From positions 8,877 through 72,876 of the forward strand of contig CAIOSY010000055.1 of NCBI GenBank assembly GCA_903861075.1: a stretch of 64,000 nt of DNA, written 5' to 3'. This DNA comes from an uncultured Nitrosomonadales bacterium. Lineage in GTDB: Bacteria; Pseudomonadota; Gammaproteobacteria; Burkholderiales; Gallionellaceae. Both the position numbers and the translations under genes were made by a program. The notes below the pieces were generated by a model that did no database searches, was not told the DNA's origin, and worked only from the letters and a program-made list of their open reading frames with translations. Below are positions 2,876 through 9,583 of the stretch, in pieces (within the stretch, counting starts at the first letter, position 1; the number at the start of each line of letters is the position of its first letter).

Positions 2876-3694
2876 TTATTGCATCGCTGCAGATTTTTTA
2901 CCGTTCCTTTTGTCTGTCCATAGGTACGCGTCCATAGATAAACTGCCATAGGTAAAGTCGGGTTGATAACGTACAGGAGCGTCATTTGATGCGGCTCCTA
3001 AGGCAATAAAAAGGGGTAAAAAATGTTCTTCGCTGGGGTGTGCTGCTGCGCCATAAGGCGCGTCGCGATAATTGAACAGTGCGGTTACATCGTGCGCTAG
3101 AATTTGCTTTGCCACCCATACGCTAAAATCTCTCGCCTGCGTTGTCGGAACAGTGTCGCGTGGGTTGTGCCGGTTTAACCATGTAAAATTATGCGTAACT
3201 GATCCTGATGCGATGATCAGCACGCCTGCGTCTCTCAAGGATGTCAGGGCGCGTCCTATTTTAAAATGCATTTCAGGCCCTTGATTTACCACTAAAGAAA
3301 GCTGCGTCACAGGTATCTGTGCTTTAGGATACATGGCGGATAAGGGTACCCATACGCCGTGATCCAGGCCTCTCTGGGGATGTAGCTCGGCATTTATGTC
3401 CGTAGCACATAGTAATGTGGCCACTGTTTTTGCCAGCTCCGGCGCGCCAGGCGCTGAATAATGCAGGTGATAAAGTGTGCGATGGAAGCCGGAAAAATCA
3501 TGAATTGTTTCAGGTGTCTTTGACAAGCTGACTGTCGCTCTTGTTTCTTCCCAATGTGCAGAAATAGCCAGAATCGAGATGGGCATGGGAATAAGCTGGC
3601 CGAGTTTGCGCCAGTATTCCACCGTGTCAGGAGCATTGAGCAACACATCTGGTGCGCCGTGTGATACGAAAACAACGGGCATGCGGACAGACAT
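2876..3694 (-). CDS. DODA-type extradiol ring-cleavage dioxygenase (LigB/YgiD family)
   Basis: VFVSHGAP, ISAHW, RGLDHGVWVPL and HPSEEHFLPL motifs. ATG at 3694 preferred over the TTG at 3706. Confidence 0.9.
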   Translation of the reverse strand: MSVRMPVVFVSHGAPDVLLNAPDTVEYWRKLGQLIPMPISILAISAHWEETRATVSLSKTPETIHDFSGFHRTLYHLHYSAPGAPELAKTVATLLCATDINAELHPQRGLDHGVWVPLSAMYPKAQIPVTQLSLVVNQGPEMHFKIGRALTSLRDAGVLIIASGSVTHNFTWLNRHNPRDTVPTTQARDFSVWVAKQILAHDVTALFNYRDAPYGAAAHPSEEHFLPLFIALGAASNDAPVRYQPDFTYGSLSMDAYLWTDKRNGKKSAAMQ

Positions 3695-3829
3695 ACAATG
3701 TTCCAATCTTAGTGTGCGATGAGTGCATCGTACATAACTCAGCGAAAAATAAAAAGCGTTCAGTGTTGAGGTCGGGCTTGCTAAAAAGCGGGCAAAATAT
3801 ATGAAATTATGAAATTCACCTCACTTCGG

Positions 3830-3845
3830 TGTTAAACTTCGCCCC
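3830..3845 (+). promoter_or_regulatory. extended -10 promoter of rnpB with GC-rich discriminator
   Basis: TG-n-TAAACT (3830-3838), then TCGCCCC, then G3846, the first base of helix P1. Confidence 0.7.
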
Positions 3846-4320
3846 GAAGCTGGCTAGGCAGTCGCCGCGCACGTCAGTGCGGGGAGGAAAGTCCGGGCTC
3901 CATAGAACAGAATGCCGGTTAATGGCCGGACGCCGTGAGGTGATGGAAAGTGCCACAGAAAACGGAGCGCAGCGGAGTTTCTGCGCAGGCTGACTTTAGT
4001 CATGTCTGCCAGCCGCTTGACGTATTCCCTTTTTAGCGTTGAGGGTATGAATCTATGCCGGAGCTAAAATGATACCGCCGATGATCTGATTTTTTAGTTT
4101 ACTGCTAAATCAGGCACAGGTAAGGGCGAAATGGCGAGGTAAGAGCTCACCGCGCGCCCGGTAACGGGCGTGGCAGGGTAAACCCCATTCGGAGCAAGAT
4201 CAAATAGGCTGACTATGACGTGGTTCGCGTCGTCAGCGGGTAGATTGCTTGAGCGTCAGGTAACGAAACGCCTAGAGGAATGACTGTCCACGACAGAACC
4301 CGGCTTATCGGTCAGCTTCA
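3846..4320 (+). ncRNA. rnpB: RNase P RNA (bacterial type A), with a ~108-nt insertion
   Basis: P1 GAAGCTGGCT/GGTCAGCTTC. Conserved motifs GAGGAAAGTCCGGGCTC, AGTGCCACAGAAAA, GGTAAACCCC, GAGCAAG..CAAATAGG, AGAGGAATGACT and ACAGAACCCGGCTTA. Confidence 0.98.
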
Positions 4321-4590
4321 CTTTCATTTTTGCGCGGGTCTTTTTTGCCTGTCAGTTTATTTGCATCTCACTTGGGTCGTATTCCTCCTGTGTTTTTCAT
4401 GGGTGTGTATGTGCCGTCTCCTATCTTAACCGACGCGAATCATTGGATTCTTCCTTTAAGATTTGTCTCCCTCTCATTACAAATAACTTTAGTATGTTTA
4501 TGCAATGCATTGCTTTATAAGCATATTTGCTTTTTTGTGAGCATTCGTTGCTAACTCCTTGTCTTTTATAGAAAAAGTTCATTTATTTGC

Positions 4591-4619
4591 TTGACCCGCC
4601 GCTTTTTTTTTAATATAGT
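4591..4619 (+). promoter_or_regulatory. sigma70 promoter of the dcw cluster
   Basis: TTGACC (4591-4596), 17-nt spacer, TATAGT (4614-4619). Confidence 0.8.
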
Positions 4620-4627
4620 GCTGTTAA

Positions 4628-4652
4628 GTGGTGAAAAGTGGGTATTTGTGGG
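4628..4652 (+). promoter_or_regulatory. MraZ-binding direct repeats
   Basis: GTGGT, GTGGG and GTGGG at 4628, 4638 and 4648 (exact 10-bp period), between the promoter and the mraZ ATG. Confidence 0.85.
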
Positions 4653-4660
4653 GTGTGAAG

Positions 4661-5107
4661 ATGTTTCAAGGTGCAGCACAATTAAATTTAGACGGCAAAG
4701 GCAGGCTCGCAATACCCGCTAGGTATCGTGACAGACTGCTCAATAGTTGTGCCGGAAATTTGGTGCTGACGGCAGACGCGGATGGGTGTCTGTTGGTTTA
4801 TCCTGAACCTGACTGGTTACCTATTCGTGACAAATTGCTCAAACTCTCTTCTTTAAATCCCAAAATTCGTGCCTTGCAACGTCGTTTGATTGGTTATGCC
4901 GAAGATGTTTTGATGGATAGTGCCGGACGCGTCTTGGTGTCGCCTGTCTTGCGCACTTATGCGGCGCTCGACAAAACAGTCATGCTGGTTGGGCAGGGTA
5001 ATAAGTTCGAATTGTGGGATGAATCAAAGTGGCAGGCGCAGCAGGAAAGTGATTTGTCGTTCTCTGAAGGTGAATTACCGCTTGAGCTGGAAGGGTTTTC
5101 TTTGTGA
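4661..5107 (+). CDS. mraZ: division/cell wall cluster transcriptional repressor MraZ
   Basis: [14 protein letters not shown] and DSAGRVLV motifs. ATG at 4661; the GTG at 4628 lies within the MraZ boxes. Confidence 0.97.
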
Positions 5108-6039
5108 ATGAGTCTTTGAGTCATACCACTGTCTTGTTGTCTGAGGCAGTTGATGCATTGTCGATTAAACCCGCGGGTATTTATGTTGATTGTACTTTTG
5201 GTCGGGGTGGGCATAGCGCAAGAATTTTAGAGCAACTGGGTGCAGAAGGTCGTTTGATTGTTCTTGATAAGGATATGACAGCCGTTGAACACGGTCGTTT
5301 ATGGGATGACGGCCGATTTAAAATTGTACATAGTGGTTTTACGTGTCTTACGGATGTGTTGGGTGCGTTAGGTGTCACGAAAGTCGATGGTATTTTGCTT
5401 GATTTGGGTGTTTCATCCCCTCAGTTGGATGAGGCCGCGCGCGGTTTTAGTTTTAGATTTGATGCGCCATTAGATATGCGTATGGATACCAGTCGCGGAT
5501 GTACGGCAGCTGAATGGTTGGCAGTCGTGGATGAGCGCTTGTTAATGGAGGTTATCCGGGATTACGGCGAAGAGCGGTTTGCCAAGCAGATTGCCCGGGC
5601 GATTGTTGAGGCGCGTCAGAGCCAGGTTATCCAAACGACAGGGCAGCTTGTCGAGTTGCTTGGCAAGACGGTTCGTACGCGTGAGCCAGGAAAAAATCCG
5701 GCCACTCGTACCTTTCAGGCAATACGAATTTATCTCAATCAGGAGCTGGAGGAGTTGGAAAGTGTGTTGCCTCAATGTGTGACACACCTGAAAGCAGGCG
5801 GGCGATTGGTGGTGATCAGCTTCCATTCTCTGGAAGATCGGATTGTTAAGCATTTTATTCGTCAGATGAATGATGCGGACACGTTGCCGCGTAATGTTCC
5901 TATTCGTGCCAGTGAAGTGCCGCAAGGAAAATTGAAAATGGTAGGTCGTGCGATAAAGGCCGGATGTGATGAGTTACAAATCAATCCGCGTGCGCGTAGC
6001 GCAATGATGCGTGTAGCTGAGCGTAGTGATGTGGCGTAA
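5104..6039 (+). CDS. rsmH: 16S rRNA m4C1402 methyltransferase
   Basis: [29 protein letters not shown] and ISFHSLEDR motifs. Confidence 0.97.
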
Positions 6040-6325
6040 TAGCTATTTTCAAGCGTTTTTGTTGCTATTGCTGGTTATGTGCGCATTGAGCGTTGTGACA
6101 TCTCAACATCAGGCGCGGAAATTATTTATAGAGTTACAGCAAGAAAAAGAACACGCCCGTCAAATGGAAGTCGAATGGGGTCAGTTGCGATTGGAGCAAA
6201 GTACCTTGGCTGCAGCGGCGAGGGTGGAAAAAATTGCAGTCATGCAATTGCAAATGCGTATGCCCAAACAAGAACAGCTCAAATTTATACGAGTTAAGTC
6301 AGTTGAATTAATTAAGCAGCCATGA
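6026..6325 (+). CDS. ftsL: cell division protein FtsL
   Basis: Single TM segment plus leucine-zipper coil ([11 protein letters not shown]); located between rsmH and ftsI. Confidence 0.93.
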
Positions 6326-8075
6326 AATATAGGAATAGAACAAAGGACACGATTGCGGCGAAGTTGCCAAGATGGCGTGCGGCTGTACTATTTTTTGTCT
6401 TGTTAGCTTGTCTGGCGGGGCTTATAGGTCGTGCTGTTTACTTGCAAGGAATCCATGATGACTTCTTGCAGGAAAAGGTAATCAGCGATATAGCAGAGTT
6501 ATTGAAGTGAGTGCGCATCGGGGCATGATCGTCGATCGTAACGGCGAGCCATTGGCGGTGAGTACGCCCGTCGAGTCTGTATGGGCCAGTGCTTCGGGTA
6601 TTAAACTCGGCGATGCCAACGAAGCTAAAATTGATCAAAAGCAGCTTAAACAGTTAGCGCATGCTTTGGATATGTCTGTCGGGGATGTGCAGGCGAAACT
6701 GGTTGATAGTGCGCGAGATTTTGTTTATTTAAAACGACAAGTTCCCCCTGAGCAGTCAGGTGCGGTTGCCAAGTTGAATTTGCCGGGAATATCTATGCAA
6801 CGCGAGTATCGACGATATTATCCGGCAGGTGAAGAGTTCGCGCAGATGTTGGGTTTTACCGGACAAGATGATAACGGGCAGGAAGGCCTGGAGTTGGTTC
6901 TGCAAGACAAGTTGGCTGGCAAACTTGGAAGTCAGCGCGTTATTAAGGATAGGCGAGGCAGAATCGTTGAAGATGCGGGAAGTTTAAATCCGCCTAAGCC
7001 GGGCGGCGATATTGTGCTCAGTTTGGATAGTAAAGTGCAACATTTGGCTTATCGTGAATTGAAACATGCTGTTTTGCAAAATCAGGCTAAGGCGGGTGCT
7101 GTCGTTGTGCTGGATGCAAAGAGCGGGGAGGTATTGGCTTTAGCTAACTATCCTAGTTATAACCCGAATAACCGGCTTCATGTGAGTACGCAAGCGATGA
7201 GAAATCGTGCTGTTACCGATATATTTGAACCCGGTTCGACGATGAAGCCATTTACCATCGCAACGGCACTCAATATAGGGAAGCTACGTCCGGAATCCGT
7301 TATCAATACCGAAAATGGGGTGTACACCGTGGGTAATAAAAAAATCCATGATACCCATGCCTCCCCGTCGTTAACGGTATCGGAGGTGATACAAAAATCA
7401 AGTAATGTGGGTGCGGCTAAAATTGCCTTATCACTGGAGTCAGAGGTGCTGTGGAAGACATTTTCTACTTCGGGTTTTGGTTCTCATACAGGGAGTAATT
7501 TTCCGGGTGAAGCAGCAGGTATTCTCAGGGATGCTAAAAGCTGGAGGCCGATCGAGCAGGCAACAATGTCGTACGGGCACGGCATCTCCGTCAATCTGTT
7601 GCAACTGGCGCGCGCCTATACCATTTTTGCCGGCGAAGGTGAAATAAAACCCATCTCCTTGCTTAAGCTGGATGTTCCGCCTGCGGGTGAGGCTGTGTTT
7701 TCCAGTAAGACAGCAGCACAAATGCGCACGATGCTGGAATCGGTTGTCATGCCGGGTGGAACGGCTCCTCTGGCCCGCGTGGCGGGATATCGAGTGGCGG
7801 GAAAAACAGGCACCGCTCATAAGCTTGATGGGCGTCACTATTCCAATCGTTACGTCGCCTCTTTTGTTGGTATGGCGCCCATGTCTTCTCCGCGTCTGAT
7901 TGTTGCGGTGATGATAGATGAGCCAACGAGTGGTCAATATTACGGTGGTATCGTGGCCGCACCCGTTTTTAGTCAGGTAATGAGCAGTGCATTGCATTTG
8001 CTCAAAGTGCCGAATGATGCGGCACTGGATAATGTGATTGCCGCACCTGCAGAAACTTACAGGGAGGAAATATGA
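6322..8075 (+). CDS. ftsI: PBP3 / FtsI transpeptidase, interrupted by a 1-nt deletion at 6473-6478
   Basis: ORF 6322-6510 carries the TM anchor. ORF 6507-8075 carries the dimerisation and transpeptidase domains (EPGSTMK, KSSN, GKTGT). Adding one base gives the continuous ...FLQEKGNQRYSRVIEVSAHRGMI... Confidence 0.9.
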
Positions 8076-9583
8076 CTATTTCCTTGCAAGAAGCACAGAT
8101 TCAACTGGGTGAGATCCATCATCTGGAAACGGATAGTCGCAAAATAAAACCCGGTGATACTTTTGTTGCCTATTCCGGAGATAAAAGTGACGGTAGGCAA
8201 TTTATCGATCAGGCGATCGATAAGGGTGCGAATTCCGTTATTTGGGACAAGCAGAATTTTGTATGGGATCGTCGTTGGGATATAGCCAACTGGGGCTTGT
8301 CAGATTTGAAAAATAAAGCAGGGCTGCTGGCTGACGCTGTATACGGATCACCCTCCGATCATTTATGGATGGTGGGGGTCACCGGCACCAATGGAAAAAC
8401 CTCGAGTTGCCATTGGATCGCTCAGGCATTGAATGAAGCGAATAAAAAATGTGCGCTCATCGGCACGCTAGGCAATGGATTTGTCGGCGAACTTTGTTCG
8501 AGTGTCAATACAACACCGGGGGCGATTGAATTGCACGGGTTGTTGGCGGATTACCTTGAAGCGGGTGCGTGTGCCGTGACGATGGAGGTCTCCTCGCATG
8601 CCTTAGCGCAAGGGAGAGTTAAAGGGGTGCGTTTTGATGTGGCGCTATTTACCAATTTGACGCGTGATCATCTTGACTATCACGGTGATATGGAAAGTTA
8701 TGCGGCCTCTAAGCGGTGTTTGTTCGATTGGGAATCGCTTAAATATGCAGTGATCAATTTGGATGATCCCTTTGGTGTTCAATTGGCCATGCAGTTAAGA
8801 AACAGCCCGGTGGAGGTGATAGCGTATGGCTTAACGACGGAAGCATTGCATTGGGCTGAGCGGCAAGGGATGCGGATGGTTTATGCGCAGTCCGTTGAGA
8901 TGCAAGCGCAGGGCTTGGTGTTGGATATCCATTCCAGTTGGGGCGCGGCAAAATTAACCAGTGCTTTGGTGGGCAGGTTTAATGCTTCAAACTTGTTAGG
9001 AGTGCTTGCGGTACTGATGCTTGGCCATCTTAATTTGCAAGAAGCTGTGACAGCGCTGAGCCATGTGATGCCTGTTGCGGGACGAATGCAGAAACTGGGT
9101 GGCAATAGGCTGCCGACCGTCATCATCGATTATGCGCATACCCCCGATGCCTTGGAAAAGGTATTGTTGACCTTGCGGGAAGCCTGTGTTGCACCTGAGG
9201 GGGAAGAATCAAAGCTCATTAGTGTTTTCGGATGTGGCGGGGAAAGAGATAGTGGTAAGCGCTCGATGATGGGATGTGTGGCAGAAAAGTTCTCAGATTA
9301 TTGCATCGTGACTAGTGATAATCCGCGTAGCGAAGATCCACAACAAATTATTGCTCAGGTGATTTCAGGCATGAGCGCAAAAACGCACCAGGTTATTGTT
9401 GATAGGGCTGATGCGATCGACACGGCCATTCGTCATGCGCGTTGTAAAGATGTGATTTTAGTCGCAGGTAAGGGGCATGAGGATAGCCAAGAAATCAATG
9501 GCGTAAAGTATCCGTTTAGCGATGTCAATGTTGCCATGCAGGCCCTAAAAATCTGGTCAAAAGAGACTGGAGGCGTTTTATGA
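8072..9583 (+). CDS. murE: UDP-MurNAc-dipeptide--meso-DAP ligase
   Basis: GVTGTNGKTS, MEVSSH, TNLTRDHLDYH and DNPR (DAP-specific) motifs. Confidence 0.97.
   Translation: MTISLQEAQIQLGEIHHLETDSRKIKPGDTFVAYSGDKSDGRQFIDQAIDKGANSVIWDKQNFVWDRRWDIANWGLSDLKNKAGLLADAVYGSPSDHLWMVGVTGTNGKTSSCHWIAQALNEANKKCALIGTLGNGFVGELCSSVNTTPGAIELHGLLADYLEAGACAVTMEVSSHALAQGRVKGVRFDVALFTNLTRDHLDYHGDMESYAASKRCLFDWESLKYAVINLDDPFGVQLAMQLRNSPVEVIAYGLTTEALHWAERQGMRMVYAQSVEMQAQGLVLDIHSSWGAAKLTSALVGRFNASNLLGVLAVLMLGHLNLQEAVTALSHVMPVAGRMQKLGGNRLPTVIIDYAHTPDALEKVLLTLREACVAPEGEESKLISVFGCGGERDSGKRSMMGCVAEKFSDYCIVTSDNPRSEDPQQIIAQVISGMSAKTHQVIVDRADAIDTAIRHARCKDVILVAGKGHEDSQEINGVKYPFSDVNVAMQALKIWSKETGGVL

Follow-up and report, generated by a model that had tools for sequence, protein, structure and literature searches.

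A probable lineage-specific expansion domain in the J11/12 joint of type-A RNase P RNA from Gallionellaceae

The window, by which we mean the whole 64-kb stretch of DNA analysed here, carries an RNase P RNA gene with a 108-nt segment set into its J11/12 joint, and this segment (3964–4071) is likely a retained, selected and lineage-specific structured expansion domain of type-A RNase P RNA. The gene, a class-A bacterial RNase P RNA at 3846–4323 on the plus strand, is the sole Rfam RNA gene in the window; in the Rfam scan it matched RF00010 over the complete model (positions 1–367) at 285.7 bits (gathering score 100, E = 2.6e-92). Boundaries drawn by the covariance model give a length of 478 nt with the insert and 370 nt without it, which revises the 474 and 366 nt of an earlier note on this DNA. 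The parts of the gene around the insert are as follows.

3846–4323, plus strand: rnpB, bacterial type-A RNase P RNA, 478 nt with the insert (RF00010; ppx-rnpB-mraZ neighbourhood as in relatives)
3955–3963, plus strand: 5' part of J11/12, ACAGAAAAC, which includes T-loop 1 (AGAAA, 3957–3961; from sequence, motif per PMC3664808)
3964–4071, plus strand: inserted domain, 108 nt (missing from at least 35 related rnpB genes, homologous in 18 sequences)
4072–4074, plus strand: 3' part of J11/12, AUA (aligns with YAY/AYA before CCGCC in insert-free rnpB)
4075–4122, plus strand: P12, complete; its lower part is the usual GAUG/AUCAGGUAAGG and its tip is rich in A and U (folds on its own; homologous to the P12 of relatives)
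4127–4131, plus strand: T-loop 2 in J12/13, CGAAA rather than the usual UGNNA (from sequence, motif per PMC3664808)

Site of the insert and its occurrence among genomes

Along the gene, ...GGAAAGUGCCACAGAAAAC runs to 3963, the 108 nt of the insert follow, and AUACCGCCGAUG... begins at 4072. The earlier note had set an insert at 3964–4071 into J11/12, with AGTGCCACAGAAAAC ending at 3963 and ATACCGCCGATG beginning at 4072, and homology with relatives upholds that placement. At the J11/12–P12 boundary all 35 insert-free Gallionellaceae rnpB genes read GTGCCACAGAAAAYAYAC(C/T)GCC (GUGCCACAGAAAAYAYAC(C/U)GCC), J11/12 reads ACAGAAAAYAYACCGCC in every insert-free relative, and L014 rnpB reads ACAGAAAACATACCGCCGATGG (ACAGAAAACAUACCGCCGAUGG), which is exactly the window minus 3964–4071. 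J11/12 measures 120 nt in the window versus 12 nt in all of the insert-free relatives, at least 35 in number. Length variation among these relatives, including 68-nt three-way expansions, lies past GAUGG and within P12, and among insert-bearing relatives P12 varies independently of the insert. Folded alone, the window P12 (4075–4122) reached −13.7 kcal/mol (z = −2.4). The placement in J11/12 thus rests on the homology of insert-free relatives together with the complete, self-folding P12 of the window. The insert splits the 12-nt J11/12 into ACAGAAAAC and AUA, starting 2 nt past T-loop 1 and ending 3 nt short of P12.

Both T-loop cores flanking P12 are present, AGAAA in J11/12 and CGAAA in J12/13 (first base changed from U to C), and the AGAAA at 3957–3961 fits AGNNA, the core defined for the double T-loop module at which the tRNA elbow is docked (motif, PMC3664808). 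Position 3963 is C in 17 of 17 insert-bearing rnpB genes versus 9 of 48 insert-free ones, and this C3963 is able to pair with G4071 in all 17 insert-bearing sequences. The long J11/12 is an anomaly of the window rnpB and gives no ground to exclude the gene from the RF00010 family.

Some neighbouring features vary as well. The CGAAA of T-loop 2 (4127–4131) departs from the highly conserved 5' closing U (UGNNA); 10 of 17 insert-bearing rnpB genes have C at 4127, versus 10 of 48 insert-free ones (p ~0.006, uncorrected for multiple tests or phylogeny). The tip of the window P12 (4084–4112) is AU-rich (UCUGAUUUUUUAGUUUACUGCUAAAUCAG) and has no GNRA-type cap (GCAA, GAAA, GCGA) of the kind typical of most relatives. 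A 68-nt branched expansion in P12 (GGCCCGACUUUGCC...GAUCAGG) is found in L014, L017, L031, L038, L063 and L093, the last of which has an rnpB of ~530 nt that combines the P12 expansion with the J11/12 insert.

Two readings would deny the insert its place or its existence. The Rfam alignment itself depicts an enlarged P12 next to a normal J11/12, since cmscan takes GGAGCGCA for the P12 5' strand and the remainder for inserted P12-loop sequence. Formally, then, the covariance model does put the insert in a known variable helix, an outcome that the earlier note had named as counting against a J11/12 insert, but it does so through an alignment artefact: seven of the pairs in that alignment are non-canonical, and its boundaries have low posterior probability. 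The true 5' strand, AUACCGCCGAUG, lies downstream and matches relatives base for base, P12 self-folds, and the genuine P12 expansions of relatives come after GAUGG, so that an enlarged P12 is very improbable. Misassembly, also raised earlier, fares worse still, and an artefact or chimera is scarcely credible. Two independent lake metagenomes carry the insert with 0 differences across it, X1 in a 942-nt contig spanning window positions 3750–4254 and X2 in a 374-nt contig spanning 3775–4148; the independent DNA runs X1, X2 and X4 have an identical insert sequence, and homologues come from 20 independent assemblies. We found no support for an artefact, the one irregular joint being a strand switch in an RNA unitig of X3, outside the insert.

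The spread of the insert was followed by two scans. One searched GTDB species representatives for Gallionella-type J11/12 and P12 flanks 80–140 nt apart; in 13 Gallionellaceae genomes the insert that it found was clearly homologous, and six further matches were unrelated and due to chance. The other used only internal motifs of the insert, blind to context, in GTDB representatives and then in metagenomes; it returned 14 loci in the representatives (Gallionellaceae), each a single match and all in rnpB J11/12, and six metagenome contigs with the insert. Altogether there are 18 distinct homologous inserts of 108–118 nt, all at the same rnpB site, far beyond what chance could produce. A second full copy was absent from the window and from 1.3 Mb of related loci. 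Other genomic copies, for which the earlier note had proposed a search, did not appear in the context-free scan, which gave one insert per genome and always in rnpB J11/12. The insert is single-copy and site-specific, not a dispersed repeat. An exact 23-mer of hairpin 1 had no match in GTDB representatives, among which the window's species is apparently not included, and the homologues differ there. Rfam covariance models, including group I and group II introns, matched the inserts of the window and L097 at chance level only (E at least 0.07, far below gathering scores).

Conservation, fold and retention in RNA

Among insert-bearing genes the mean pairwise identity is 0.76 for the insert, compared with 0.29 for P12, 0.60 for P3 and 0.77 for J12/13–P13–P14. 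The unpaired stretches AGUUUC, CCCUUUUU, GUUGA and GGAGC are invariant or nearly so across the 18 sequences. The insert is under purifying selection. Its structural elements in the window are these.

3964–4028, plus strand: hairpin 1 (MFE fold; basal helices covary)
4031–4069, plus strand: hairpin 2 (MFE fold; base helix 99.2% paired in 18 sequences)
3988–4006, plus strand: 5' arm of long-range helix L, columns 36–56 (RNAalifold consensus; pairs with 4044–4059)
4044–4059, plus strand: 3' arm of long-range helix L, columns 98–120 (RNAalifold consensus, covariation)

The two hairpins proposed for the insert in the earlier note were recovered as the MFE fold of the insert alone (−39.8 kcal/mol, z = −2.5). 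Hairpin 1 is closed by two basal helices, GGAGC with 4024–4028 and 3970–3975 with 4013–4018, and in the window its upper stem is GCAGGCUGAC / GUCAUGUCUGC. Hairpin 2 has a 7-bp base, UUUUAGC (4031–4037) with GCUAAAA (4063–4069), and an upper stem of GGUAUG (4044–4049) with UAUGCC (4054–4059). The alignment bears out the basal helices: columns 12–16 with 78–82 include pair 15:79 (AU 11, GU 4, GC 3), columns 18–23 with 67–72 include pair 21:69 (UA 11, CG 7), and columns 85–91 with 124–130 (UUUUGGC/GCCAAAA) are 99.2% paired, with pair 89:126 as GC 12, AU 4 and GU 2. Across the tested structures 94.0–96.2% of cells are paired versus ~30–48% when partners are shifted by 1–3 columns, and double changes occur at pairs 21:69, 15:79, 89:126, 36:120 and 51:103. 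Several of the covarying pairs may represent one to three evolutionary events each; the AU variant of 36:120 and the UA variant of 51:103 occur in both sequence sub-groups and therefore reflect more than one event. The insert is truly structured.

Each hairpin has a near-palindromic upper half, and the two upper halves are complementary to each other, hence two folds compete. RNAalifold picks helix L, ~20 bp and 96.3% paired, which would be a pseudoknot because it crosses the basal helices. Its pairs 36:120 (GC 13, AU 5) and 51:103 (CG 10, UA 7, UG 1) are broken in none of the sequences. The upper stem of hairpin 1 is 88.7% paired, with pair 36:56 broken in 5 of 18 sequences and pair 40:51 an A.C mismatch in six. 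By thermodynamics, the long helix is the better fold for 10 of the 18 sequences, with a margin of 1.4 to 17.7 kcal/mol, and these fold at minimum free energy into a near-perfect helix of 19–22 bp; the remaining eight prefer two hairpins, and these eight include the window and its closest homologue, L088. A 7-nt deletion in the 3' arm, common to the window and L088, shortens helix L in the window to 4 + 7 bp, and changes in L103 improve hairpin 2 and break the long helix. The upper half may thus adopt either two hairpins or the long-range helix, and comparison gives the latter a slight edge in most species. Two other arrangements were tried and set aside. A knot-free fold combining the long helix with an inner hairpin (columns 66–69 with 88–91) is 86% paired, lacks double changes and does worse than the basal helices; loop–loop kissing is at odds with the covariation of 36:120, the outermost pair of the long helix, the hairpin alternative 36:56 being broken in 5 of 18.

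Evidence from RNA consists of assembled metatranscriptome unitigs, that is, contig-level data rather than raw reads. For the window's own sequence there is a single RNA unitig, in metatranscriptome X3 (depth 8.3), which matches 3940–4111 exactly and crosses both junctions into the organism-specific P12. Genes and intergenic DNA beside the window rnpB have depth 0 in X3, which makes DNA contamination an unlikely source. In the groundwater metatranscriptome X29, a 438-nt unitig at depth 183 equals L086:107–544 with 0 differences; it includes the whole insert and covers almost the entire RNase P RNA, and the adjacent ppx has depth 0 there. A 328-nt unitig of X30 also supports retention of the insert in RNA, and an L089-type insert is spanned in X24 and X25 by unitigs of 121 and 144 nt. 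The joint 3963|4072 expected of an excised and rejoined RNA was found in none of the RNA runs examined, and X3 contains no unitig branch at 4072, which would be expected if such a joint shared the P12 of the window's organism. The insert is kept in at least a substantial share of the RNA molecules, though some may be cut within it and left unjoined. In X3 the 199-nt unitig over the insert (3940–4111) runs on into 3873–3899 on the opposite strand; this inverted joint is possibly snap-back cDNA or an assembly artefact at the structured P7–P10 region.

Distribution, origin and alternative readings

Insert-bearing and insert-free genes share the same orf-ppx-rnpB-mraZ neighbourhood, rnpB lies upstream of mraZ in 35 related loci, and the window encodes a MraZ sharing 92% identity with the one from a Gallionella MAG, which marks the organism as a Gallionella-like betaproteobacterium. 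In a Ppx tree limited to contigs with both ppx and rnpB there are at least three insert-bearing groups (the window; L103, L122 and L126; L082, L084, L091 and L106) with insert-free lineages interspersed, and L119 has no insert though it falls inside an insert-bearing clade. Ppx proteins of insert-bearing lineages are 65–80% identical to the window's; its nearest relatives by Ppx (82–83% identical) have no insert, so the insert is dispensable in close kin, a fact compatible both with a useful module and with a nearly neutral passenger. The inserts appear to follow the host groups in how they are related. An rnpB-core NJ tree and pairwise core identities contain too little signal to show the insert-bearing genes as a clade or otherwise. 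The distribution would be compatible with one origin and several precise losses later on, and also with alleles exchanged through the highly conserved flanks by homologous recombination.

The surroundings of the gene differ in other respects. A LigB-type extradiol dioxygenase gene (2876–3694, minus strand) lies between ppx and rnpB in the window; tblastn found no counterpart in the other insert-bearing loci, and two other assemblies that encode an identical MraZ have the same ligB–mraZ spacing as the window (967 nt). It appears to be a lineage-specific gene insertion beside rnpB. Directly downstream of rnpB is the start of the dcw cluster (mraZ, rsmH, ftsL, ftsI, murE; 4628–9583), and a sigma-70-like promoter match is seen at 4591–4619. 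Relatives with the closest MraZ (84–89% identical; L002, L003 and L005–L008) have no rnpB within 3 kb upstream of mraZ, and in L020 and L030 rnpB lies ~2.6–3 kb upstream; with rnpB absent near or distant from mraZ in these relatives, the adjacency of the two is variable in the family. A group II intron fragment (RF02001, D1–D4) was noted at L004:1–53 (minus strand), the end of a Gallionella contig near the mraZ locus.

A possible source of the insert emerged outside rnpB. Intergenic hairpins of ~50 nt at L106:458–507 and L178:3410–3460 resemble the outer arms and both ends of the insert (BLAST E-values 4.5e-4 and 6e-4 in 1.36 Mb of sequence). Hairpin and insert have in common a 5' AAAACG, AGUUUC.G.G.AGGCUAACCUU, a UUU loop and AGGUUAUGCCGGA(A/G)CUAAAAU; at the DNA level the element follows the pattern AGTTTC...TAACCTTTAGGTTA...GGAACTAAAA. 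The free-standing hairpin corresponds to the outer part of the long-range helix with the middle missing. DNA run X5 added two further genomic contexts, the DNA contigs of metagenomes containing the window's organism contained no copy, and a comparison with Rfam gave no family matches. The hairpins may be a low-copy palindromic element family in Gallionellaceae, and their sequence suggests that such an element seeded the insert, which would have been elaborated later. The sequence CGGAGC does occur near both ends of the insert, at 3963–3968 and 4059–4064, precisely where the earlier note had located it. We rejected it as a target-site duplication: the 5' copy lies in a covarying helix and is CGGAAC in 11 of 18 sequences, and the 3' copy is 7 nt inside the end. 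The insert has no terminal inverted repeats with target-site duplication, CGGAGC not being terminal on the 3' side.

Three ideas had been put forward for the insert: a tolerated extra domain, an intervening sequence cut from the mature RNA, and a palindromic mobile element. The extra domain agrees with conservation across species, compensatory base changes and presence in RNA. As an intervening sequence, the insert would be transcribed, folded and cut out by RNase III or RNase E, leaving a fragmented RNase P RNA held together by pairing. Such removal has a parallel in the same RNA domain, the P12 expansion of T. indicus, which is excised in vivo (PMC9945441). The insert also has a patchy distribution like that of rRNA intervening sequences, and RNase III could plausibly act on the near-perfect 19–22 bp MFE helix of 10 of 18 homologues. 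Most homologues can form a long helix, but the 7-nt deletion interrupts it in the window and L088, and the loops and central part are strongly conserved: AGUUUC, CCCUUUUU, GUUGA and GGAGC are invariant or nearly so, unlike discarded spacers. RNA unitigs, the longest of 438 nt at depth 183, run unbroken over the insert and both junctions, and the 3963|4072 joint is missing from the runs examined, so we consider excision quite unlikely.

A palindromic repeat of the REP, MITE or RPE kind could instead sit in a tolerant spot, carried along or exchanged by recombination with no role of its own, and the conservation would then reflect only the need to leave the ribozyme undisturbed. Related hairpins do occur outside rnpB in at least three or four contexts, the halves of the insert are palindromic and resemble each other, and the insert is patchy among close relatives, L119 being insert-free inside an insert-bearing clade. 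Against a passenger stand the invariant loop sequences and an identity of 0.76, maintained across lineages whose Ppx is 65–80% identical to the window's and far above that of P12 and P3. The full domain was never seen outside rnpB in the scans of GTDB representatives, metagenomes and related loci; it occurs once per genome, and in other contexts, three or four of them, only the shorter hairpin relative is seen. The insert lacks terminal inverted repeats flanked by a target-site duplication, and the hairpin element was not found in metagenomes with the window's organism. A roleless passenger is therefore unlikely. The mobile-element idea accordingly divides in two: as a present-day identity it fails on a single-copy insert at one site under purifying selection, whereas as an origin it is hinted at by the free-standing hairpins of two relatives.

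Proposed role and relation to known systems

On the reading that we prefer, a retained and selected expansion domain, a palindromic hairpin element probably landed in J11/12 and was then elaborated and fixed. The insert is transcribed within rnpB and stays in the RNA, where the T-loop core (AGNNA), the residues preceding it and P12 are intact and the linker leads toward P12. The first pair of P12 is part of a 'shadow' platform, which is left unused and lies on the other face from the platform that binds tRNA (PMC3664808). With the T-loop core and P12 intact and the first P12 pair in the shadow platform, the domain, judged from this published description, probably projects from the face of the S-domain that points away from the tRNA elbow. 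Such an orientation would explain why the domain is tolerated and the ribozyme keeps working.

Given the invariant loops and the selection on the helices, the role suggested by sequence comparison would most likely be structural: the domain could stabilise the S-domain or guide its folding, or it could present a surface for binding; assigning any particular function to the domain is nonetheless doubtful. A bolder proposal, which we regard as a long shot, is a conformational switch in the substrate-recognition module, built on two evolutionarily kept and mutually exclusive folds, the two hairpins and the 20-bp pseudoknotting helix. Temperature, a ligand, a protein or co-transcriptional folding could decide the balance between them, and the domain, 2 nt from the elbow-docking T-loop, could tune S-domain folding or substrate choice. 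In a lesser variant of the switch, the domain could recruit an extra protein subunit, as archaeal and eukaryal RNase P expansions do.

Intervening sequences of 23S rRNA are removed by RNase III, are poorly conserved and occur sporadically at a fixed site with a long helix. The insert shares with them a sporadic distribution, a fixed site in an essential structural RNA and a long helix, but it is retained and conserved, loops included. Rickettsia palindromic elements, REP and MITE-like repeats are palindromic hairpins tolerated within essential genes. Here, too, a palindromic hairpin lies in an essential gene and related hairpins occur elsewhere in related genomes; unlike those elements, the insert is single-copy, confined to rnpB, free of a target-site duplication and diverged along with its hosts.

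Closer comparisons come from RNase P RNA itself. The P12 expansion of Thermodesulfatator indicus is excised in vivo and leaves the RNA fragmented (PMC9945441). Like the insert, it measures ~70–110 nt, belongs to the specificity domain near P12, is found in one lineage and is absent in the nearest relative; it is placed at the tip of P12 and cut out, however, whereas inserts of the window type are at J11/12 and seen in uninterrupted RNA unitigs. A 2026 survey of 337 bacterial RNase P RNAs describes the expansions P5.1, P10.1, P14, P18 and P18.0, all distal to the tRNA interface (PMC12974513). Known bacterial expansions, P12 extensions included, resemble the insert in adding helices to a conserved core, in being retained and in being lineage-restricted. 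Those listed in the survey are located away from the ribozyme–tRNA interface (PMC12974513), in contrast to the window's insert, which adjoins the tRNA-elbow T-loop module in J11/12; the insert also differs from them in its own possible pseudoknot and in being patchy even among close relatives. Compared with the described double T-loop module (PMC3664808), the window retains both cores, AGAAA in J11/12 and NGAAA in J12/13, on either side of P12, but its connector from T-loop 1 to P12 is 113 nt versus 5 nt and its T-loop 2 begins with C in place of the conserved U.

A full-text literature search, of incomplete coverage and so weak as negative evidence, produced no account of J11/12 insertions and none of RNase P RNA from Gallionella; the absence of other J11/12 inserts is judged from this literature and from the 80–140 nt scan with Gallionella-type flanks. 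On this evidence the insert counts as a lineage-specific expansion of RNase P RNA whose site is functionally sensitive and has no known precedent. The J11/12–J12/13 module is among the most conserved RNA modules and serves as a tRNA-elbow dock in RNase P, the ribosomal L1 stalk and T-box leaders. A retained, conserved domain of ~110 nt between T-loop 1 and P12 means that the connector can open without loss of an essential enzyme, and it provides a natural test case for the folding of the specificity domain around a large insertion. Since the domain is present in some close relatives and missing from others, a ready comparison for biochemistry exists. If the origin from a palindromic element is true, a repeat element has been fixed as part of a ribozyme.
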